Source of the DNA: Chlamydiota bacterium
GTDB lineage: Bacteria; Chlamydiota; Chlamydiia; Chlamydiales; Rhabdochlamydiaceae
Assembly: GCA_039798725.1 (NCBI GenBank)
Contig: JBDKFJ010000006.1
Span: 11,472 to 75,471, forward strand
Reading direction: 5' to 3'
DNA length: 64,000 bases
The translations under genes were made by a program, and so were the position numbers. This document shows positions 861-37,936 of the stretch, piece after piece; within the stretch, counting starts at the first letter, position 1, and every line of letters begins with the position of its first letter. Under the pieces are notes generated by a model that saw only the letters and a list, made by a program, of their open reading frames with translations, had not been told where the DNA came from and did not search any database.

Positions 861-3323
861 ATGATCGACCACTACACAGTCATAAAAAGTTTAAACAAGG
901 GTGGCATGGGCGAGATATTCCTTGTCCATGATCCCATCTGCAAAAGGCAGGTGGCCCTAAAACAGATCCTTCCAAAGCTCAGAAACCACCCCGTTATCCG
1001 CTCTCGGTTTCTTAGAGAAGCAGAAGTCGGAGCCCTACTTAACCACCCTAGCATTCTTCCCGTCTTTTCCATCGATCCTAGCCATGAAAAGCTCTACTAT
1101 ACAATGCCCTACATCGAAGGGGAAACATTAAAACAAATCCTAAAAAGATGTCTAGAGGAAGAAAAAGAAACCAATGTACTACTCCCCTTATTCCTGAAAT
1201 TATGCGAGGCGGTTGAATACGCTCATGCAAAAAAAATTATACATAGAGATATCAAACCGGACAATATTCTTGTAGGGCACCATGGAGAAGTCCTCCTTTT
1301 TGACTGGGGCTTATCCGATTTTGAAGGAAGCTCTACACAGGAAATAGAAGTAGAAGAGAGCAAAGAAGATCTGACATCTCCTGGCAAAGTCCCAGGAACC
1401 TTAAACTATATTGCTCCAGAACGTCTGCAAGGAGCTCAGACTAGCGCTTCAATGGATATCTATTCCCTTGGCGTTATCTTATACCAAATCCTAACGCTAC
1501 GCTCTCCCTTCCAGAGAAAATCTCTAAAATTATTCAAACAGTGTAAAGAGGAACTACTGATTCCTCCCATAGAAAGAGCTCCCCACCGCTCCATTCCGGA
1601 ATCTCTAAACGCACTATGTATCAGGTGTTTGCATCCAGATCCTAAGGAAAGGATCGGAAGTGTAAAAGAGATGATAGACACCCTCTTTCCTGTTCTAAAC
1701 GGGCTACCCCAACCTGTAAAAATCACTCATCTTAACCCTTTTTCCTCCCAAGACTGGGAGTTTCAAGAGCATATCTTTCTCTCTCAGCATCTAGCTATTA
1801 CAAAGTCGCCGCAAGTGGCAGAGTGGGCACACCTCATGGTCTCTTTGCACCATTTCATACCTCCTCTTAACATCACCTTAAAATTTTCTTTGCCCCAAGA
1901 TTCTCAAGGGATCGCTCTACTCCTAGGAGTTCCCTCTTTAGAAGAGAGAAAAAGTTTTGTCGAAGGCGTGCAGATTTTTCTTGGAAAAACTTCGTTGCTT
2001 CTTTTGCACGGGGCTCCTCTAATGCTGCTCCCAGGAGCTAACATTACAGATACTGCCTTTCACACTCTTACAATTGAGTACAAAGATCACAAAATTCACG
2101 TGTCATTAGATGGAAAACAGGTAGGACTCTATCCGTTACGACTGCCACTTCCGGGACAAAAAATAGGTTTTTTTTCGTATGACTCACACTTTGCCATAGA
2201 GACATTTGTGATCGAAGAGAAGGGACACACATTAAATGTCAGCTGCCTTGAAATCCCGCACGCTTTTTTAAGTCATCGCGACTTTAAAAAGGGAAGAATT
2301 GAATATGAAAGAATTGCCAGCAGCTTTCCTGGAACTCTTCAAGAAAAAGAAGCCCTATTTGGCGCTGGGATCTGTCTTATAGAAGAGAGGCAACCTCTAC
2401 TTGCTTTAGAGATGTTCGATCGATTGCATAATACCTCTTATGCCCCTTTGGAATATGTGGGAAAATCGCTTGTCTATAAACAAGAAGATATAGAAGAAGA
2501 GATGAAATGTTTAGAGCTAGCGTTACGCAAATACAAAAACCACCCCCTCATTCATACTGTACAAGAGCAGCTCATCTTACGCCTTTATGAAACCTCGTTT
2601 TCCTCTAGACGTTATGCTTATGAATTTGCACTCATTGCCCTCATGCATATCCCCTGCGCCATCCAAGATGTGCTATTTAGCCAATTAAACGAACACCTAG
2701 CTTCCCATCCACTGCTGACAGCTAAAGTCCCGGCAGATCAAGCCCTAGCCTGTAAATGCGCCCTTTACACAGGAAAAATCCACCCTCTCCTTGAACTCTC
2801 AGAAAGCGGAGCAAAAGAGATTCGCATCGATGCTTGCTATGCATTACTTCTGTTGGGAACATATGAAGAGGTCGAAGAAAACCTGCCTCTTCTTGAAGCT
2901 GGAAAAGAGGAAATCCTATCTGCCTTGTCTTACTTTAAAGAAGGACCGAAGGCGGCCTTTACAAAGGCGGGAGAAAATATCCGTCTCCTGTATTTCCTTC
3001 TTCAACGATGCCTCATGGATAGCGTTTATGAAATCCCTCCGCTTCCCAAAGATCCTCTTCTAGATTCCCTGCTTTTCTTTATGTTAAGACGGCAGGGTAA
3101 ATCATATCCCATTCCTGAAACAAAAGACCCTGCATCCCCTCTTTTTATTCCGTACGCTTATCAGCTATTGGACACTCAAGGAAAAGAGGCGATGCAAGCG
3201 CACCTTGCTTTGGCGCCTGCCTTCTCCATCGCCTCCCTTCTACTTGACTCGATGCAATCTTCTCAAAGAGAAAAAGAGTGGCTACTCTTCGAAAAAACCC
3301 TCGTTGGACTTTATACAGAATAG
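861..3323 (+). CDS. Hanks-type Ser/Thr protein kinase with a long non-kinase C-terminal region
   Basis: 820-aa ORF. Kinase motifs occur in the expected order: NKGGMGEIF (Gly loop), VALKQI (Lys), HRDIKPDNILV (catalytic loop), DWG (DFG variant), GTLNYIAPE (APE). Residues ~290-820 are non-kinase: a beta-rich stretch (HTLTIEYKDHKIHVSLDGKQVGLY...IGFFSYDSHFAIETFVIEE) followed by helical TPR-like sequence. No TM helix seen. Confidence 0.85.
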   Translation: MIDHYTVIKSLNKGGMGEIFLVHDPICKRQVALKQILPKLRNHPVIRSRFLREAEVGALLNHPSILPVFSIDPSHEKLYYTMPYIEGETLKQILKRCLEEEKETNVLLPLFLKLCEAVEYAHAKKIIHRDIKPDNILVGHHGEVLLFDWGLSDFEGSSTQEIEVEESKEDLTSPGKVPGTLNYIAPERLQGAQTSASMDIYSLGVILYQILTLRSPFQRKSLKLFKQCKEELLIPPIERAPHRSIPESLNALCIRCLHPDPKERIGSVKEMIDTLFPVLNGLPQPVKITHLNPFSSQDWEFQEHIFLSQHLAITKSPQVAEWAHLMVSLHHFIPPLNITLKFSLPQDSQGIALLLGVPSLEERKSFVEGVQIFLGKTSLLLLHGAPLMLLPGANITDTAFHTLTIEYKDHKIHVSLDGKQVGLYPLRLPLPGQKIGFFSYDSHFAIETFVIEEKGHTLNVSCLEIPHAFLSHRDFKKGRIEYERIASSFPGTLQEKEALFGAGICLIEERQPLLALEMFDRLHNTSYAPLEYVGKSLVYKQEDIEEEMKCLELALRKYKNHPLIHTVQEQLILRLYETSFSSRRYAYEFALIALMHIPCAIQDVLFSQLNEHLASHPLLTAKVPADQALACKCALYTGKIHPLLELSESGAKEIRIDACYALLLLGTYEEVEENLPLLEAGKEEILSALSYFKEGPKAAFTKAGENIRLLYFLLQRCLMDSVYEIPPLPKDPLLDSLLFFMLRRQGKSYPIPETKDPASPLFIPYAYQLLDTQGKEAMQAHLALAPAFSIASLLLDSMQSSQREKEWLLFEKTLVGLYTE

Positions 3324-3411
3324 ATCTGCTTTGCAGTGAAAAAATAGTAGCGCAAAGACGGCCTCCTATAGGTATAGTGGATCCCAATGCCTCATTGCGC
3401 AAGCGGTCTAA

Positions 3412-3706
3412 TAAGCGCTTCAAACGGCGTTGTTGCATAAATATGTAGTTTTACCACAGAGATGGGAAACCACAGAGAAAAAATTCATATTTTAAATCGA
3501 CGCATGCCATCCTTGAGGGTTTTCATGTTGAAATGGATCAAAAGCCCTATTTTGCAATCACAACTTCAAATAAGAAAGCAGCTGTATGGCAGAACTTGGA
3601 ATACCTGAAAGCTACAAAAGAACCATTTAAAAATTTCCTCTCTGTGGTTTCCCATCTCTGTGGTAAAATTCAAACATTTGTGCAACAAAGCCGTTTCAAA
3701 CAGCTT
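3412..3706. repeat. ~295-bp foldback (MITE-like) element: ~72-bp imperfect terminal inverted repeats around a ~146-bp centre
   Basis: 3449-3477 (ttttaccacagagatgggaaaccacagag) is the exact reverse complement of 3640-3668 (ctctgtggtttcccatctctgtggtaaaa). Complementarity continues outward imperfectly (…tgcaacaa[a/c]gccgttt[c/g]aa…) to about 3412 and 3706. Confidence 0.6.
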
Positions 3707-4468: not shown

Positions 4469-6202
4469 CTATCTCGCTGAAGAAAGCAAATTCTCAAACC
4501 CGGTTTTCAGATCCGCCTTATCTTCTTCTTTAAGTGCTGTTATCTGATCCACAACCTGACTGTATAATGCTTTAATCGTCGTAGATAGCTCTGTGCTGAA
4601 ATTCCCTCTGTTTTGTTTTAATCGGGCCCCTAAGCTACTCAACTGCTTGAGGAATAACATGAGGTGATTACTAATTAGAGGTGTTGCTAACTGATCCCTG
4701 ATAGTCTCTATTGCTTCTCTTATTTCTTCTTTCTGAAGCACTTCACGAGCCTTGGTTTCCGCCAATACAACAGCTTGTATTATTTCTACCCTTTCTGTCT
4801 GGTCAACCAATGCACGAGCCTCTTTTTCTACCGACATAAAAGCTTCTCTTTCTTCTTCGAGCCGCTTGTTAAGCATAACCTTTTCTGCGCAGTCAAGCTC
4901 TCGTATTATCCGCACCCGATCTGTCACTTCTTCTTTCCAAACCGCTGCACGAGCCCCTTTTTCAGCCGACATACAAGATTCTAGTGCTTGTTTTATTACT
5001 TCTGCACGAGCCTCTTTTTCCACCGACATAAACTCTGCTCTTGCTGCGATTGCTTCTTGGTCAACTACTGCACGAGCCGAGCTTTCTGCCGACCAATAAG
5101 CGTTTGTTATTGCTGCCATTGCTTCTTTATCAACTACTTCACGAGCCTTGGTTTCCGCCAATACAACAGCTTGTATTCTTTCTACCCTTTCTGTCTGGTC
5201 AACCAATGCACGAGCCTCTTTTTCTACCGACATAAAAGCTTCTCTTTCTTCTTCGAGCCGCTTGTTAAGCATAACCTTTTCTGCGTGGTGAAGATCTTGT
5301 ATTATCTTGATCAGATCTGACTCTTCTTCTTTCGAAAGCGCTGCACAAGCCTCGTTTTCTGCCAACATACAAGATTCTAGTGCTTGTTTTATTACTTCTG
5401 CACAAGCCTCTTTTTCCACCGACATAAACTCTGCTCCTGCTGCCATTGCTTCTTGGTCAACTACTGCACGAGCCAAGCTTTCTGTCGACACAAGTGCTTG
5501 GGACATAATATCTTTTATACTGGATGCTTCTGCTTTATGGAGGCCTTCACGAGCCGAGCTTTCTGCCGACATAACAGCTGCTGTTGCTTTTCTTGCTTGT
5601 GCGGCCAACATGGCCGGTTTCAGTATTGACCTCCCGCATATACAAACAACAGCTAGACCTATTGGATATAACAAAGAAGGTAAAAACCACGGTAAGGCAG
5701 ACTCTTGAGGTGTACTCCTATTAGACACGATAGGAGAGACGTCGGGCATAGCATTGACATAGGAATAAGCGAATAAAGAAGCTCCTACCAGGGTACCAAT
5801 GAGACACAAAGGCTTGATTATGGATGTCATTGAATAGGGTTTTAGTCCGTTAAAGACATCCTTTTGAACTTGAGAAGAACAACCCTGCAAATAGGGCTTG
5901 AGGTAGACTTTCATAAGCTCTTCGGGAGACACGCTATTCTGCGGGATGACTTCTTGGCACCTTTGTGCAAACACCTCCCTAAATGCTTCCAGAGATTCTT
6001 TTTTGCTGACATGAGAACCCGCTTTACTATAGGTAGCAATTAGGCAGACCGCCTTCTCTCTAAGTAGAAGAGATGAATGAGGAGCGCAAAGACCGATAGA
6101 CTGCAACATTTTGAGGACAAAGCGTACAAGCAAGTAGTCCGCATAGCCTTGTATTCGACTTAGCTCCATGTGCGCTTTGCTGATTCCCTTTACTTGTGTC
6201 AT
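4469..6202 (-). CDS. two-TM, coiled-coil, repeat-containing protein (Inc-like topology); function unknown
   Basis: 577-aa ORF whose ATG overlaps the stop of the giant ORF (ATGA at 6199-6202). Two hydrophobic helices at codons ~127-148 and ~170-190 (nt ~5633-5824). About 350 aa of Ala/Glu/Lys-rich heptad-like sequence follows, with an internal 132-aa duplication. Confidence 0.75.
   Translation of the reverse strand: MTQVKGISKAHMELSRIQGYADYLLVRFVLKMLQSIGLCAPHSSLLLREKAVCLIATYSKAGSHVSKKESLEAFREVFAQRCQEVIPQNSVSPEELMKVYLKPYLQGCSSQVQKDVFNGLKPYSMTSIIKPLCLIGTLVGASLFAYSYVNAMPDVSPIVSNRSTPQESALPWFLPSLLYPIGLAVVCICGRSILKPAMLAAQARKATAAVMSAESSAREGLHKAEASSIKDIMSQALVSTESLARAVVDQEAMAAGAEFMSVEKEACAEVIKQALESCMLAENEACAALSKEEESDLIKIIQDLHHAEKVMLNKRLEEEREAFMSVEKEARALVDQTERVERIQAVVLAETKAREVVDKEAMAAITNAYWSAESSARAVVDQEAIAARAEFMSVEKEARAEVIKQALESCMSAEKGARAAVWKEEVTDRVRIIRELDCAEKVMLNKRLEEEREAFMSVEKEARALVDQTERVEIIQAVVLAETKAREVLQKEEIREAIETIRDQLATPLISNHLMLFLKQLSSLGARLKQNRGNFSTELSTTIKALYSQVVDQITALKEEDKADLKTGFENLLSSAR
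4741..5489. repeat. in-frame tandem duplication, period 396 bp (1.9 copies), with nested sub-repeats
   Basis: The string cttcacgagccttggtttccgccaatacaacagc starts at 4741 and again at 5137. Similarity runs on to ~5489. One 50-aa block is identical in both copies (AEKVMLNKRLEEEREAFMSVEKEARALVDQTERVE.IQAVVLAETKAREV). The motif gcac[g/a]agcc recurs about 11 times, roughly every 60-70 bp. Confidence 0.9.
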
Positions 6203-32831: not shown

Positions 32832-33056
32832 TTAAAAACAAGAAGTCTCTTTTGCTTTGGCTAAATAAGCCATCCTAGCTGTCATGAGCCCCTCAAGAAC
32901 CCCCTCCTCATAACGAAATAACGGATGATTCTCCAATTCGGTAAAATCGTTGGGCTGAAGCAGGTCATCCTCCGTAATATGAGGCACCATTTGGGAGGCC
33001 AACGCCAACATCCTCTTTTTTTGACCACAAATCAATTCATCAAAAAGTTTTTCCAT
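32832..33056 (-). CDS. hypothetical small protein, 74 aa
   Basis: ORF overlapping the tadA 3' end by 17 nt. I recognise no motif. Confidence 0.4.
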   Translation of the reverse strand: MEKLFDELICGQKKRMLALASQMVPHITEDDLLQPNDFTELENHPLFRYEEGVLEGLMTARMAYLAKAKETSCF

Positions 33057-33501
33057 CTCGCCTCTTTCTAAAAAAAGATTTCATCTCTTCCCCACACTCC
33101 TCTGCTAGCACCCCCGATCTGATTTCTAATCGGTGCATGGGATGAGGTTTTTCAAACAAGTCAACCCAACTTCCATGAGCCCCGCACCGCACATCTTTAG
33201 CCCCCCATACCAGTCTTCCGATCCGTGACTGCAGCATTGCCCCTGCACACATAGGACAAGGCTCCAAAGTACAGTATAATGTTGTCTCTAATAGCCGCCA
33301 GTTGTCTAGCACCCCAGCGCCTCTTTCCAAACAGAGCATCTCGGCATGCGCCAGCGCCGACTTTTTCCTTTCCACTTCATTGTGAGCCCGGGCAATCACC
33401 TGCCCCTTATACACAAGGACTGCCCCCACAGGCACTTCCCCACAAAGCGCGCCTTGCCTTGCCTCCTCAAGCGCCATCCTCATAAACATTTCATCCATCA
33501 T
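33040..33501 (-). CDS. tadA: tRNA-specific adenosine deaminase
   Basis: CDA zinc motifs HAEMLCL and PCPMCAGA. 153 aa. Confidence 0.85.
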   Translation of the reverse strand: MMDEMFMRMALEEARQGALCGEVPVGAVLVYKGQVIARAHNEVERKKSALAHAEMLCLERGAGVLDNWRLLETTLYCTLEPCPMCAGAMLQSRIGRLVWGAKDVRCGAHGSWVDLFEKPHPMHRLEIRSGVLAEECGEEMKSFFRKRRDGKTF

Positions 33502-33553
33502 GCCGTTTATCCTATCACTTCTCCTTTTTGTTTTTTATTTTTTGTTTTGAGGG

Positions 33554-33823
33554 TGAAAGTTGGAGGGCTGGCTTCTATAGACATATCGGGTGGTGCGTCC
33601 CTGCGAAGCGCATCCCCTGTGACCCCCTTGCGATTCACCTCGCCTCGCCATATCGCATTTTCGTCGGGGGTCCGTGCATAGCACTGTTCCCCCACGCTGC
33701 GCTCTCCTCAAATGCAATCTTGCTTTGCGATCTGAATCGATCGGCTGCTCGCGCATTCCTCCCCAGTTCCCACCCCAAAGGGGACCCCAGGAACGGGGCC
33801 CCTCCATGTCAACTCGCAGAGCC
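33554..33823. repeat. G+C-rich inverted repeat, arm A (270 bp)
   Basis: It is the reverse complement of 33948-34217, with 7 mismatches in my hand alignment. It is much more G+C-rich than the flanking genes. Confidence 0.9.
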
Positions 33824-33947
33824 ATCTGTTTTGCCGCTCCGCGTTCTCACTACCTGTTTTAACTACAACAATTGGAAAAGGCCTAAAAGGAGAGCCGTCT
33901 GTCTTAACTAAAACAATTGGGGAGGACCCGAAGGGAAAAAAGAAATG

Positions 33948-34217
33948 GGCTCTGCGAGTTGACATGGAGGGGCCCCGTTCCTGGGGTCCCCTTTGGGGTG
34001 GGAACTGGGGAGGAATGCACGAGCAGCCGATCGATTCAGATCGCAAAGCAAGATTGCATTTGAGGAGAGCGGAGCGTGGGGGAACAGTGCTGTGCACGGA
34101 CCCCCGACGAAAATGCGATATGGCGAGGCGAGGTGAATCGCAAGGGGGTCACAGGGGGTGCGCTTTGCAGGGACGCACCACCCGATATGTCTATGGAAGC
34201 CAACCCTCCAACTTTCA
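33948..34217. repeat. G+C-rich inverted repeat, arm B (270 bp)
   Basis: Reverse complement of arm A. The 124-bp spacer (33824-33947) contains the direct repeat tgttttaactacaacaattgg / tgtcttaactaaaacaattgg. Confidence 0.9.
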
Positions 34218-34342
34218 ATAAATGGGGCGCTGCTCACAAATCTCAAAGAAAAAATGTTAACCTCTTGGTCTTTACTAAAAAAATGAAAACAGTCAGCAAA
34301 TAATTTCCCCGTCGAACTCGCCAAGAGAGAAAGACAAAAGGA

Positions 34343-34371
34343 TTGAATCTATTGGTGTGGTTGGATATAAT
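34343..34371 (+). promoter_or_regulatory. sigma70-like promoter candidate for rpsO-pnp
   Basis: TTGAAT (34343-34348), a 17-nt spacer, then TATAAT (34366-34371), ~70 nt upstream of the rpsO ATG. Confidence 0.5.
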
Positions 34372-34442
34372 GGAGGCGTTGTGTGAGATTTTAAAGCTCT
34401 CATATCTTTTTTGAACCCAGACAGAGCGGGAGATATTGAAAA

Positions 34443-34712
34443 ATGTCTTTAGATAAAGGTACTAAGGAAGAGATTACCAAGAAGTTCCAATTGCACGAGA
34501 AAGACACCGGGTCTGCAGACGTCCAAATCGCGATCCTTACAGAGCGCATCTCAGAGTTGACAGAACACCTGAAATTAGCTCCTAAAGATCATGCTTCCCG
34601 TCTAGCGTTGCTCAAGCTCGTAGGACAGCGACGTAAACTGTTGGATTATTTGAATTCAACAGACACCAAGCGCTATCAAACTTTAATTACACGGCTTAAC
34701 CTCCGCAAGTAA
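34443..34712 (+). CDS. rpsO: 30S ribosomal protein S15
   Basis: 89 aa. [23 protein letters not shown]…[21 protein letters not shown]. Confidence 0.95.
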
Positions 34713-34738
34713 TAATTTTTCTTTTCCAACAGAAAAAA

Positions 34739-34767
34739 CCAAGTGAATTTTTCACTTGGTTTTTTTT
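34739..34767 (+). terminator. stem-loop + T-run between rpsO and pnp (attenuator/terminator or RNase III-type processing hairpin)
   Basis: ccaagtgaa-ttt-ttcacttgg (9-bp stem) followed by tttttttt. Confidence 0.6.
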
Positions 34768-34835
34768 ATGCTTGGCTCTTTATCTTCCCCTATTCTATCA
34801 TGGCAACTTGAATTTATTTTTGGAGTGACTTTTAC

Positions 34836-36932
34836 ATGAAATTTCAACGCAAATCTATCAGTGTGTCTATCGCAGGACGCGAAATAATATTTGAAACAGG
34901 CAAAATTGCACGCCAAGCGGGCGGTTCAGTTGTTGTACGATCCGGAGACACCCTTCTACTGGCAACTGCATGTTCTGCCCCTCCTCCTGCAGATGATATC
35001 GATTTTCTTCCGTTGCGCGTTGATTACCAAGAGAAATTTTCTTCTGCCGGCAAAACACTCGGTGGATTTATTAAACGGGAAGGAAAACCGACAGAAAAAG
35101 ATGTACTTACATCTCGCCTAATTGACCGACCGATTCGCCCGATGTTTCCGGAAGGTTACTTTAATGAGGTACAGCTCCTAGCTTACGTATATTCTTATGA
35201 CGGCGTCCACTCTCCTGATGCTCTGGCTATTTGTGCCGCATCCGCTGCTCTTGTTCTCTCTGACATTCCCCTGTTAAAACCGATTGCGGGGGTACGCGTA
35301 GGCATGCTGGGTTCAGATTTTGTCATTAACCCCACTGTTGAGGAGCAAAAACGCTCCCGTTTAGACTTGATGATTGCAGGCACAGAAGATGCCATCTTGA
35401 TGATTGAAGGATACGCTGACTTTTTACCGGAAGAGACAATCCTTGCAGCCATTAATGAGGGGCACGCAGCGATTGCCAAGATCTGCACAGCTCTTAGTGA
35501 CTGGCAAAAAGAGATCGGCAAAGAAAAAGATCTGTCTCTTTTAAGACCCCTTTCAAAAGAACTCCTCGAAGAGATCAAAAAGACATCTTCTGAAAAAGTC
35601 CAGGCTGCTCTAAAAATTTCTGAGAAAGGAAAGAGGGAAGAGGCCATTGATGCAATAAAAGAAGAGTTAACGGCTCACTTTGAAAAGCAAGCCACCTATC
35701 CTGTTCATGAAGTCAAACGCGCCTTTAAAGAGATGCAGTCACACCTCATGCGTCAGATGATTCTAGATGAAAATAAACGCAGTGATGGTAGAGCTTGTAA
35801 CGAAATCCGACCGATTGATGTAGAATCATCCCTTCTTCCACGCACCCATGGAAGTGCTCTTTTTACAAGAGGAGAGACACAAGCTCTATGCGTATGTACG
35901 CTTGGCGGAGAGACAATGGGCCAAAGGGGAGAGAATCTCGATGGTGAATTTCTGAGTAGATTCTATCTGCAATACAGCTTCCCTCCATTTTCTGTTGGGG
36001 AAGTCGGTCGTATGGGTGCTCCCGGAAGACGAGAAGTGGGTCATGGCAAGCTTGCAGAGCGTGCGCTAGCTGCGACCATTCCTCATGCAGAGCATTTCCC
36101 CTACGTCATCCGACTAGAGTCGAATATCACAGAATCAAATGGGTCTTCTTCGATGGCCTCTGTTTGCGGTGGCTGTCTTGCCATGATGGATGCAGGGGTT
36201 CCCATCAAGCGTCCGATTGCCGGAATTGCGATGGGGTTGATCCTAGAAGAGGGGCGCTATGCTATTCTTTCCGATATCTTGGGCGTAGAGGATGCTCTGG
36301 GCGATATGGATTTCAAACTTACAGGAGATGCGCAAGGGATCACAGCATTCCAGCTTGATATCAAAGTGGAAGGGATCAATGCCCACATCATGCAAGTAGC
36401 GCTTGCCCAAGCCAAAGAAGGGCGCACTCACATCTTGAATAAGATGCTAGAGGCATGTCCCAAATCGAAAGAAAACCTCTCTTCCTATGCTCCTCGTATT
36501 GAAACCATGCAGATTAAGCCTAGCAAGATCGGTATTGTGATTGGGCCCGGAGGAAAACAGATCCGTGCGATTGTCGAGGAGACCGGCGCTCAGGTGGATA
36601 TTGATGACTCCGGACGTGTCAGCATCGCTTCCAACAATGCAGAAGGCATGAAGCGCGCAAAAGAAATCATCTTTAACCTAACGGCCGAAGTAGAAATTGG
36701 AAAAACCTATACAGGTCGCGTAGTTTCTATTGTACCGTTCGGCTGCTTTGTTGCTATCTTTGGCAAAGAGGGACTCTGCCATATTTCAGAGCTATCCCAC
36801 AGTCGCATTGCGAACGTGACAGACGTTGTTAAAGAAGGGCAAATGCTCGATGTTAAAGTCCTTGATGTCAATGACAGAGGACAAATCAAGCTCAGCCACA
36901 AAGCTCTTCTACCGGCACCCCAGCGCGGTTAA
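34836..36932 (+). CDS. pnp: polynucleotide phosphorylase
   Basis: 698 aa. It has two RNase PH-like halves plus C-terminal KH and S1 segments (…GKTYTGRVVSIVPFGCFVAIFGKEGLCHISEL). Confidence 0.95.
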   Translation: MKFQRKSISVSIAGREIIFETGKIARQAGGSVVVRSGDTLLLATACSAPPPADDIDFLPLRVDYQEKFSSAGKTLGGFIKREGKPTEKDVLTSRLIDRPIRPMFPEGYFNEVQLLAYVYSYDGVHSPDALAICAASAALVLSDIPLLKPIAGVRVGMLGSDFVINPTVEEQKRSRLDLMIAGTEDAILMIEGYADFLPEETILAAINEGHAAIAKICTALSDWQKEIGKEKDLSLLRPLSKELLEEIKKTSSEKVQAALKISEKGKREEAIDAIKEELTAHFEKQATYPVHEVKRAFKEMQSHLMRQMILDENKRSDGRACNEIRPIDVESSLLPRTHGSALFTRGETQALCVCTLGGETMGQRGENLDGEFLSRFYLQYSFPPFSVGEVGRMGAPGRREVGHGKLAERALAATIPHAEHFPYVIRLESNITESNGSSSMASVCGGCLAMMDAGVPIKRPIAGIAMGLILEEGRYAILSDILGVEDALGDMDFKLTGDAQGITAFQLDIKVEGINAHIMQVALAQAKEGRTHILNKMLEACPKSKENLSSYAPRIETMQIKPSKIGIVIGPGGKQIRAIVEETGAQVDIDDSGRVSIASNNAEGMKRAKEIIFNLTAEVEIGKTYTGRVVSIVPFGCFVAIFGKEGLCHISELSHSRIANVTDVVKEGQMLDVKVLDVNDRGQIKLSHKALLPAPQRG

Positions 36933-36941
36933 TCTTCAAGT

Positions 36942-36967
36942 AGACCTCTCTTTATCAAGAGAGGTCT
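36942..36967 (+). terminator. hairpin downstream of pnp
   Basis: agacctctct-ttatca-agagaggtct (10-bp stem). The T-tail is weak (cttcccttt). Confidence 0.4.
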
Positions 36968-37153
36968 CTTCCCTTTAAGATCCCGTTCATCAAACAGTAC
37001 TATTTATTAATTTTATTACAACCCACTACCTGTGAAATACTTAACACATTCACAAATCACGCATCAAAAAACCAACCTGATATAATTCCATTTAAAAATA
37101 GAATTTCATTCGATTTTATAATAGAATTGCATTTTTAAAATCACATAAATCAC

Positions 37154-37936
37154 ATGTCACATCTTGCCAGCTATAGTTCAATTATAAAACCCCTTACAAT
37201 AGCAGCAGTTCTCACAGGTGCATGTGTTACCTGCTACTATATAGAGTCCTATATTGCCCATCGAAATGAAAAGGCTTTGAATGCCCTATTAGATAACTGG
37301 ATGAATGACCCCAAGGCAGAAGGCAACAAGGAAGAAGCTAAACACAGGATTCTTGAGGCATTTCTTACTAGAAATACTAGCCTGGATTTAAAAGATCTTG
37401 CTCTTACAGAGCTTCCTATCGATGCTCTTACTTACCTCACAGAGCTAACCAGTCTTGATCTGTTTCACAATCAACTCCGCTCGATTGATGGTCTTTCAAA
37501 GCTCACTCGGCTCAGATACCTGCACGTATCGGATAACAAGCTCCGCTCGGTTGACAATCTTTCAAATCTCACACAGCTAGAGAGTCTCAGCCTAAGTAAT
37601 AATGAGATCGACTCAGTTGATTTTTCAAAGCTCACTCAGCTCAGACGATTGTACCTATCGCGTAACCAGCTCAGATCCCTTGATCTTTCAAACCTCACTC
37701 AGCTAAACATTCTCATGCTCTCTAGTAACCGGCTCTGCTCGGTGGATCTTTCAAAGCTCACGCAGCTCGAATTTCTACACCTACAGCGTAACCAGCTCAG
37801 TTCCGTTGATCTTTCAAAGCTCACGCGACTAAGAGGGCTCTACCTCTTGCCTAACCCACTCCGGTCTGTTGACCTTTCACACAAACCCGAGACGACCGAT
37901 TTGCAATCCTTCTTTGACTTCTTGGGAAAAAATTAA
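37154..37936 (+). CDS. N-terminally TM-anchored leucine-rich-repeat protein (7 x 22-aa LRRs)
   Basis: TM helix IIKPLTIAAVLTGACVTCYYI. Cap-like segment LDNWMNDPKAEGNKEEAKHRILEAFLTRNTSLDLKDLALTELP. Tandem 66-bp units follow, encoding L(S/T)(K/N)LTQL..L.LS.NQLRSVD (nt ~37379-37879). Confidence 0.8.
   Translation: MSHLASYSSIIKPLTIAAVLTGACVTCYYIESYIAHRNEKALNALLDNWMNDPKAEGNKEEAKHRILEAFLTRNTSLDLKDLALTELPIDALTYLTELTSLDLFHNQLRSIDGLSKLTRLRYLHVSDNKLRSVDNLSNLTQLESLSLSNNEIDSVDFSKLTQLRRLYLSRNQLRSLDLSNLTQLNILMLSSNRLCSVDLSKLTQLEFLHLQRNQLSSVDLSKLTRLRGLYLLPNPLRSVDLSHKPETTDLQSFFDFLGKN

Follow-up and report, generated by a model that had tools for sequence, protein, structure and literature searches.

A probable decayed, MITE-like foldback element in the tadA-rpsO spacer of a Chlamydiota genome, and its relatives in other chlamydial loci

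We analysed a stretch of 64,000 nucleotides from a Chlamydiota bacterium of the Rhabdochlamydiaceae (GenBank assembly GCA_039798725.1, contig JBDKFJ010000006.1, positions 11,472 to 75,471 of the forward strand), hereafter the window, in which a long G+C-rich inverted repeat fills the intergenic region between the divergent genes tadA and rpsO. [quoted passage not shown] It explains the 941-bp divergent promoter region as a transposon scar. As a kind, such an element is ordinary; its family is undescribed, and full-text literature searches found no description of it. A foldback transposon or MITE was one of several options listed in an initial annotation of the sequence, and it gains support from homologous arm pairs that we found at other sites, some of them enclosing transposases.

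The inverted repeat and its insertion site

A repeat search of the window returned two arms of 270 nucleotides, 97% complementary and 124 nucleotides apart, and a base-by-base comparison found seven mismatches between them, so that the arm coordinates, mismatch count and spacer length of the initial annotation were reproduced exactly. The mismatches are at positions 33568, 33576, 33605, 33613, 33679, 33699 and 33752 (C/T, T/C, G/A, T/C, T/C, G/C and C/T, respectively; six of the seven are transitions). A 270-nucleotide repeat at this identity far exceeds what chance could produce. The ungapped repeat does not extend beyond the arm boundaries in either direction. The core features and the flanking genes are:

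Left arm, 33554-33823, no strand: G+C-rich sub-terminal module, outer to inner on the plus strand
Right arm, 33948-34217, no strand: reverse complement of the left arm, with seven differences
Central spacer, 33824-33947, no strand: 124 nucleotides, 43.5% G+C, no transposase encoded
tadA, 33040-33501, minus strand
rpsO, 34443-34712, plus strand, followed by pnp

The G+C content is 0.60 in the arms, 0.435 in the spacer and 0.445 in the whole window, in keeping with the G+C-rich arms in mid-40s % surroundings that had been remarked upon before. The spacer direct repeat described at the same time is real but longer than the 21 bp claimed: positions 33854-33891 and 33899-33936 form an imperfect repeat of 38 nucleotides with 76% identity. 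That the arms are 97% identical is due either to a recent origin or to gene conversion between the two.

The start codons of tadA and rpsO lie 941 bp apart, close to the ~940 bp estimated earlier. By its PNPase sequence the window belongs with environmental Chlamydiota: among species representatives, metagenome-assembled genomes (MAGs) labelled Verrucomicrobiae are nearest, at 79% identity, and after them come MAGs of Rhabdochlamydiaceae and other chlamydiae. The gene order rpmE-orf74-tadA-(orf241)-rpsO-pnp is kept in 26 of 27 complete chlamydial loci, the exception being L024, where rpmE was undetected. Twelve loci lack orf241; in 11 of them the tadA-rpsO spacer measures 147-290 bp, and in L017 it is 504 bp long. 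The 941 bp of the window equal the 664-bp core repeat plus 277 bp, from which it follows that the repeat was inserted into a spacer of ordinary size. The element was not found in the tadA-rpsO spacer of any of the 28 relatives examined. In the course of events that we propose, it would have inserted into an ancestral intergenic region of ~180-280 bp and decayed afterwards. A sigma-70-like promoter is predicted for rpsO at 34343-34371, downstream of the repeat, and since the element sits upstream of it this promoter was left intact.

The site of insertion also carries a variable gene. An open reading frame (ORF) of 241 amino acids (L003 4345-5070; homologues in L004, L005, L011-L014 and others, 38-81% identical to the L003 copy) separates tadA from rpsO in roughly every second chlamydial locus, and is missing from the window and its module-free relatives.

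The arms are also covered by mirrored ORFs, with one frame per strand open through the full arm. In the longest frame five of the seven arm differences are non-synonymous, the same number on our recount as had been reported. None of the seven ORFs over the element matched Pfam, and the 138-amino-acid arm ORF had no homologue among 5.8 billion proteins. In the arm alignment, the indels between conserved blocks of family members are 10 and 8 nucleotides long; as these are not multiples of three, the arms are non-coding. The absence of Pfam matches and homologues and the frame-breaking indels bear out the earlier rejection of the mirrored ORFs as coding, and in the 941-bp region they ought to be left out of the gene annotation.

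A family of foldback elements and their transposases

Homologous elements are present at other loci. Two of them are in related MAGs. In the closest relative, L003, a longer foldback (2628-3648) occupies a different site, between rpmE and orf72/tadA, and in L018 a homologous arm pair that encloses a DUF2442 gene directly follows pnp. When four arms were aligned, this revealed conserved blocks split by lineage-specific insertions. A degenerate motif common to all six known arms was then used to scan JGI metagenome contigs and viral contigs; it matched 53 metagenome stretches, about 21 of which were confirmed by an arm profile at E<1e-15, and had no match in the viral contigs. Many of the matching contigs are 1-3 kb long and end inside an arm, in line with the arms being repeats. 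Spacers of the empty type, ~120-310 nucleotides long and with no sequence relation to one another, occur in the window, L003, L113, L124, L126, L133 and L136, and the arms of L103 enclose a glyoxalase-family gene and a 107-amino-acid ORF. A blastn search with the whole element against plasmid and phage collections gave no match; the back-translated arm ORF found no relative in the GTDB species genomes, where the source genome itself was not retrieved either.

Every copy that could be placed by taxonomy is in a chlamydial context, and the G+C-rich module is intrinsic to the family. In view of both, the foreign, high-GC origin that had been suggested for the window copy lacks support: the high G+C of the arms reflects base-paired helices, not a foreign donor.

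Transposases of two insertion sequence (IS) families are associated with the arms. In L090 an IS630-family transposase (DDE_3 match, 3e-28) fills the centre between the arms, and L138 has in its centre a protein of the same family, 70% identical to it; in both, the stop codon is within 16 nucleotides of the right arm. In five loci (L109, L110, L098, L111 and L129) an ISAs1-family transposase gene is found on the inner side of the arm, which its 3′ end abuts. The L109 protein has both DDE_Tnp_1 and DDE_Tnp_1_assoc, while L098 and L110 have DDE_Tnp_1 only. The transposases of L110, L098, L111 and L129 are only 37-46% identical to that of L109, and the association of ISAs1 with the arms is therefore old. 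In L137 only the first 42 codons of an ISAs1-type transposase remain beside the arm, and this locus looks like an internal-deletion intermediate on the way to a MITE. An IS66 transposase adjoins the arm in L116, and IS481 copies interrupt the arm in L101 and L137; these are probable nested insertions. We dropped the view that the arms are simply long terminal inverted repeats (TIRs) of an IS630 element, as ISAs1 and IS66 transposases are encoded between or beside the same arms.

The outer ends of the arms were compared with those of module-less elements. For ISAs1 the comparison set consisted of L147-L157, whose transposases are 62-78% identical to that of L109. Their terminal repeats, CAGGGCA(C/T)(T/C/A)A(A)G(A)CATTA(A/G)AA..., are 17-37 nucleotides long and are flanked in L147-L149 by perfect 10-bp target duplications, and the arm profile matched none of the set. 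The CAGGGCA(C/T) terminus is also the outermost end of many module-bearing arms, in L109 (CAGGGCATAGGACATTAGAAAAGT), L110, L112, L124 and L136, and a variant, CAGGTGAC, is found in L098, L101, L111, L118 and L129, where the flanks diverge directly outside it, so that it is the true element end. The outer end of L090 and L138 reads TATACA(C/T)A...AATGATTTTTAG, as does the terminus of the module-less IS630 relatives L140 and L141; L090 shows it at its one visible outer end (left), L138 likewise (right), and L140 has it at either end. An arm thus consists of a family-specific terminal repeat, ~25-40 AT-rich nucleotides and a shared G+C-rich module of ~250 nucleotides, which runs from ...TATAGACATGTCGGG to ...CTCGCAGAGCC. 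The module is inside the IS ends, which rules out, for ISAs1 and IS630, that the ISs landed in the middle of a palindrome already in place. The idea of the foldback centre as an insertion hotspot was rejected for these two families, whose specific termini lie outside the modules and not inside them; it may hold for IS66 in L116 and for IS481 in L101 and L137.

A passenger gene was observed in a further group of IS630 elements. The transposases of L139-L146 (e.g. L141 867-2274) are 61-63% identical to that of L090, and each is followed by a gene for a four-helix-bundle protein, 23S_rRNA_IVP (PF05635). In L140-L142, the loci checked for repeats, this conserved passenger is inside the same terminal repeats, which hold G+C-rich repeats of the CGTGCCCG type.

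The window copy probably extends beyond the arms, over ~33516-34267, and the coordinates first annotated would be those of the perfect core only. The putative terminal features are:

Right terminal region, 34218-34267, no strand: insertion of ~19 nucleotides, then an apparently decayed ISAs1-type TIR at 34237-34267
Left sub-terminal remnant, 33516-33553, no strand: TTTTGAGGG at 33545-33553, a weak putative match to TTTGA(A/G)A of ISAs1-type arms
Candidate target-site duplication, left copy, 33506-33515, no strand: GTTTATCCTA, suggestive only
Candidate target-site duplication, right copy, 34268-34277, no strand: GTCTTTACTA, suggestive only

The reverse complement of 34237-34267 is CAAGAGGTTAACATTTTTTCTTTGAGATTTG, to be compared with CAGGGCATAGGACATTAAAACTAATATTTGAAATTTG, the ISAs1 TIR of L153 and L155-L157; the motif TTTGA(G/A)ATTTG is matched at 10 of 11 positions. 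On these remnants we assign the window copy, with moderate confidence, to an ISAs1-type lineage. It is of the leftover-spacer type and most likely derived from an ISAs1-family element by internal deletion; an ISAs1 transposase recognising the terminal repeats would have mobilised it in trans. No DDE_Tnp_1/DDE_Tnp_1_assoc transposase is present in the window copy, in line with its being a non-autonomous derivative, and tblastn searches with four transposases found nothing in the window. It is probably immobile now, because the left terminus is lost. The end of the element was also rearranged between close strains: in a sister strain (L002, 95% identical to window positions 34197-37072) the sequence at 1-60 departs just inside the outer end of the right arm and has the terminal segment in two tandem copies (CCTCCAACCTTCACCAATAAAT / CAATCTTCTAACTTTCACTAAAT).

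Several observations weigh against this picture. The match at the right end was made by eye and is unscored; about 8 of its first 16 positions agree, and the end reads CAAGAGG...ACATT...TTTGAGATTTG as against a CAGGG start. The left CAGGG terminal repeat is gone, and the T-rich sequence in its place overlaps the tadA ribosome-binding region. The copies of the candidate 10-bp duplication agree at 7 of 10 positions, which is not a clean target-site duplication. The window module shares 61-69% identity with every other arm and groups with none of them, the ISAs1 and IS630 types being about equally distant, and parentage can therefore be read only from the terminal remnants. Autonomous-type relatives with the same arms are known from other genomes or contigs and not from the window's own genome, and the 64-kb window holds no second arm copy (best other blastn match E=0.58). 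No contig has a complete ISAs1 element with both module-bearing arms, as short-read assemblies break inside the arms, and no metagenome contig carries both outer ends. The metagenome contigs are taxonomically unlabelled, and for only a few of them does gene content suggest a chlamydial origin.

The same kind of element might instead have been derived from, and mobilised by, an IS630-family member of the L090/L138 type, which we consider unlikely. The transposases of L090 and L138 are tightly enclosed by homologous arms, the outer segment of the window arm, GTGAAAGTTGGAGG, resembles GTGAATGATTTTTAGG of L090, and the window arm and L138 have a similar first hairpin. However, neither the TATACA(C/T)A... 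terminus nor a flanking TA duplication is present at either end of the window copy, and the region past the right arm matches the motif ACATT...TTTGA(G/A)ATTTG of the ISAs1 TIR.

Other repeats were noticed during the survey. L148 contains at 5207-5663 a second, unrelated G+C-rich foldback (178-nucleotide arms, 99% complementary, 101-nucleotide spacer), which adjoins a canonical ISAs1 element and does not match the arm profile; long G+C-rich foldbacks may be recurrent in these genomes. L105 has, at ~200-300 and beside a groES-groEL-like operon, a tandem duplication of an arm's outer part (…GAGAAGGGCCTCCATCCTACATGTCGGG).

Covariation within the arms and the remaining explanations

A structure alignment of 21 arms yielded a multi-helix consensus fold with 46 pairs, and compensatory double changes were seen in 17 of these; by an independent count, 95.0% of cells were paired. 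Column shuffles gave 7.0±1.7 pairs with double changes, compared with the 17 observed, and 13.3±3.7 cells with double changes, compared with 53; the observed values were reached in 0 of 500 shuffles in either case. When the partners were slid by 1-3 columns only 4-5 pairs with double changes were left. We take these counts to show that base-pairing within the arms is conserved. The clearest of the covarying elements is a long-range helix with its sides ~100-250 nucleotides apart, which reads GCCTCA/TGAGGC or GACTCA/TGAGTC in other copies and GATTCA/TGAATC in the window, where 33631-33637 (CGATTCA) is predicted to pair with 33733-33739 (TGAATCG). In a hairpin at ~33666-33694, GTAC, GTGC, GGAC and GTGT alternate with matching partners. 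The alignment of the reverse complements folded at -48.0 versus -36.5 kcal/mol, with 19 covarying pairs; this consensus is equally good or better, and either strand could be the one that folds. A strand test by the count of G-U against A-C pairs was dropped because it is circular, each orientation having ~40 G-U and 10 A-C in the structure predicted for it. Shuffled sequences fold as well as single arms and arm thirds do (z -0.9 to +0.3; single arms -0.4 to -0.5), the exception being L129 with -2.5, so that folding energies by themselves lend the structure no support.

The conserved pairing may stem from selection on an RNA (for instance, one that blocks transcription across the boundary of the element), from selection on single-stranded DNA, or from nested quasi-palindromes, as a mutational by-product. 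Most arms, read from outer to inner, end in a helix, GGCTGC...GCAGAGCC, followed by ATTTT, which gives them a terminator-like look; a simple terminator scan did not detect this end. We tentatively suggest, as a possibility to which we give somewhat less than even chances, that the ~250-nucleotide module is an undescribed structured RNA or single-stranded DNA module, acquired as an inverted pair inside the termini of at least two unrelated families (ISAs1 and IS630), kept in their MITE and cargo derivatives and acting in cis at element boundaries, the window copy being its fossil. The module could serve to block or terminate transcription that enters the element or leaves it, a role proposed because each arm ends in a G+C helix followed by ATTTT, or as a transposition cofactor. 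If the covariation reflects function, a portable cis-acting module would be exchanged by transposons, which, if true, bears on how ISs insulate themselves from, or limit harm to, compact host genomes.

A different account of the conserved pairing would have the arms act primarily as a functional structured or long hairpin RNA for the host, for example in the regulation of tadA or rpsO-pnp, and be carried by mobile elements or domesticated at this site. Besides the 17-19 covarying pairs, the position of tadA fits it: the gene starts only 52 nucleotides from the left arm, and its promoter must therefore lie in or beyond the element. We regard this account as improbable, as the arms are at different sites in different genomes and are missing from the tadA-rpsO spacer of the relatives, single arms fold no better than shuffled sequence, and no promoter-like site was detected in them. 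Nor does the arm match a known RNA family in Rfam, which we searched as the initial annotation had proposed. There was no match at gathering scores in the whole window, and over 33400-34450 at E<=10 there was only hairpin-like microRNA noise far below those scores; of this we rejected MIR6224 (36 bits, gathering score 171), which reflects hairpin shape only. A scan for tRNA and tmRNA found no genes.

Two arms of 270 bp at 97% identity are also a substrate for homologous recombination, and the 124-bp spacer might flip between them as an invertible switch that controls the divergent genes. Assembled short-read contigs (Logan) from a sample with the identical strain stop inside the arms, reaching 51 nucleotides into the left and 45 nucleotides into the right; mixed orientations could cause this, and so could the repeat alone. 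Known invertons have short repeats and a dedicated recombinase. Here the repeats are long, the surrounding genes (prfA, prmC, ffh, rpsP, trmD, rplS, rnhB, rpsO, pnp and ftsH) are housekeeping genes with no invertase or recombinase among them, the spacer has no promoter-like site, and the spacers of family members are mutually unrelated, all of which make a switch very improbable. We saw no sign that a hairpin RNA or an invertible segment is why the structure exists. Repeats of a diversity-generating retroelement were ruled out, as the differences are not adenine-based, the repeats are inverted and non-coding, and there is no reverse-transcriptase gene among the neighbours.

Amplified DNA and long-read libraries are known to contain foldback chimeras, but an inverted chimera from amplification or assembly, to which the initial annotation had justifiably given low weight, is excluded by the seven differences between the arms and the unique spacer that they enclose, by the independent short-read contigs, each of which joins a flank to variants specific to that arm, and by more than 20 homologous arm pairs of the same architecture in unrelated assemblies.

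Elsewhere in the window, between rpsO and pnp (34733-34765), a perfect 15-bp stem with a 3-nucleotide loop (AAAAAACCAAGTGAA / TTCACTTGGTTTTTT) lies between runs of A and T and has the appearance of a hairpin that serves the rpsO-pnp operon as bidirectional terminator or attenuator. Related MAGs have other inverted repeats, with arms of 45-59 nucleotides, in the rpsO-pnp spacer (L003 5665-5828 and L005 5553-5907) and in the rpmE-orf74 spacer (L006 4534-4661, a weak match to the outer portion of the arm profile, E=0.003). Downstream of pnp, diverged internal repeats of ~68-75% identity, offset by ~129 nucleotides, occur at ~37423-37882 (L001 3251-3710) inside a 260-amino-acid ORF that has no Pfam match and encodes a repeat-containing protein.

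Comparison with known mobile elements

Uncultured chlamydiae host ISs and MITE-like derivatives with unusually long, structured ends. Short-read assemblies of chlamydial MAGs are interrupted by the arm repeats, a point of consequence in binning and in estimates of completeness. The part worth following up is the covariation-supported module in two unrelated IS families.

In kind, the element resembles bacterial IS-derived MITEs, such as Correia of Neisseria, the IS630-derived Nezha of cyanobacteria and MITEAba12, which have no transposase, are intergenic and can form long hairpins, as the window element does. Like the window family, MITEs have TIRs in common with autonomous ISs, and their copies are at different sites in related genomes. 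MITEs measure 100-400 bp, so that at ~750 bp the window element is a MITE in mechanism but fails the "miniature" size (usually < ~400 bp). It differs from them also in being almost all repeat, with arms that hold a structured 250-nucleotide module and not just a transposase-binding end.

The ISAs1 family has the DDE_Tnp_1 and DDE_Tnp_1_assoc transposases and the CAGGG... ends that are found in relatives with the same arms, and module-less relatives make 10-bp duplications. Canonical ISAs1 elements have repeats of 17-37 bp, the right one overlapping the stop codon, and no G+C-rich module, whereas the window copy has no transposase and one decayed terminus.

Long terminal repeats in the IS630/Tc1-mariner group are described mainly in eukaryotic members, in the inverted repeat/direct repeat (IR/DR) arrangement of Tc3, Minos and Sleeping Beauty. 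The arms of L090 and L138, ~290 bp long, are similar, with a TCGTCGGGG-like motif twice per arm that recalls the paired IR/DR binding sites. Unlike those protein-binding sites, the long part of the arms is common to an unrelated IS family and covaries, and there is no TA duplication at the ends of the window core or at the candidate ISAs1-type termini.

REPIN/BIME elements with RAYT, and ERIC, likewise have paired inverted units and covarying stems, sometimes with the mobilising gene between the units, and are preferred landing sites of ISs. REP units, however, are simple hairpins of 20-40 nucleotides handled by HUH/Y1 enzymes on single-stranded DNA, while here the units are multi-helix, ~300 nucleotides long and associated with DDE transposases. 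Mobile insertion cassettes, such as MIC231 of Bacillus cereus, resemble L103 and L018, whose arms enclose cargo other than a transposase; there is no gene in the window copy. Judged by their domains and termini, the autonomous relatives are bona fide ISAs1 and IS630 elements, which differ from the described members of these families by the long structured sub-terminal module.

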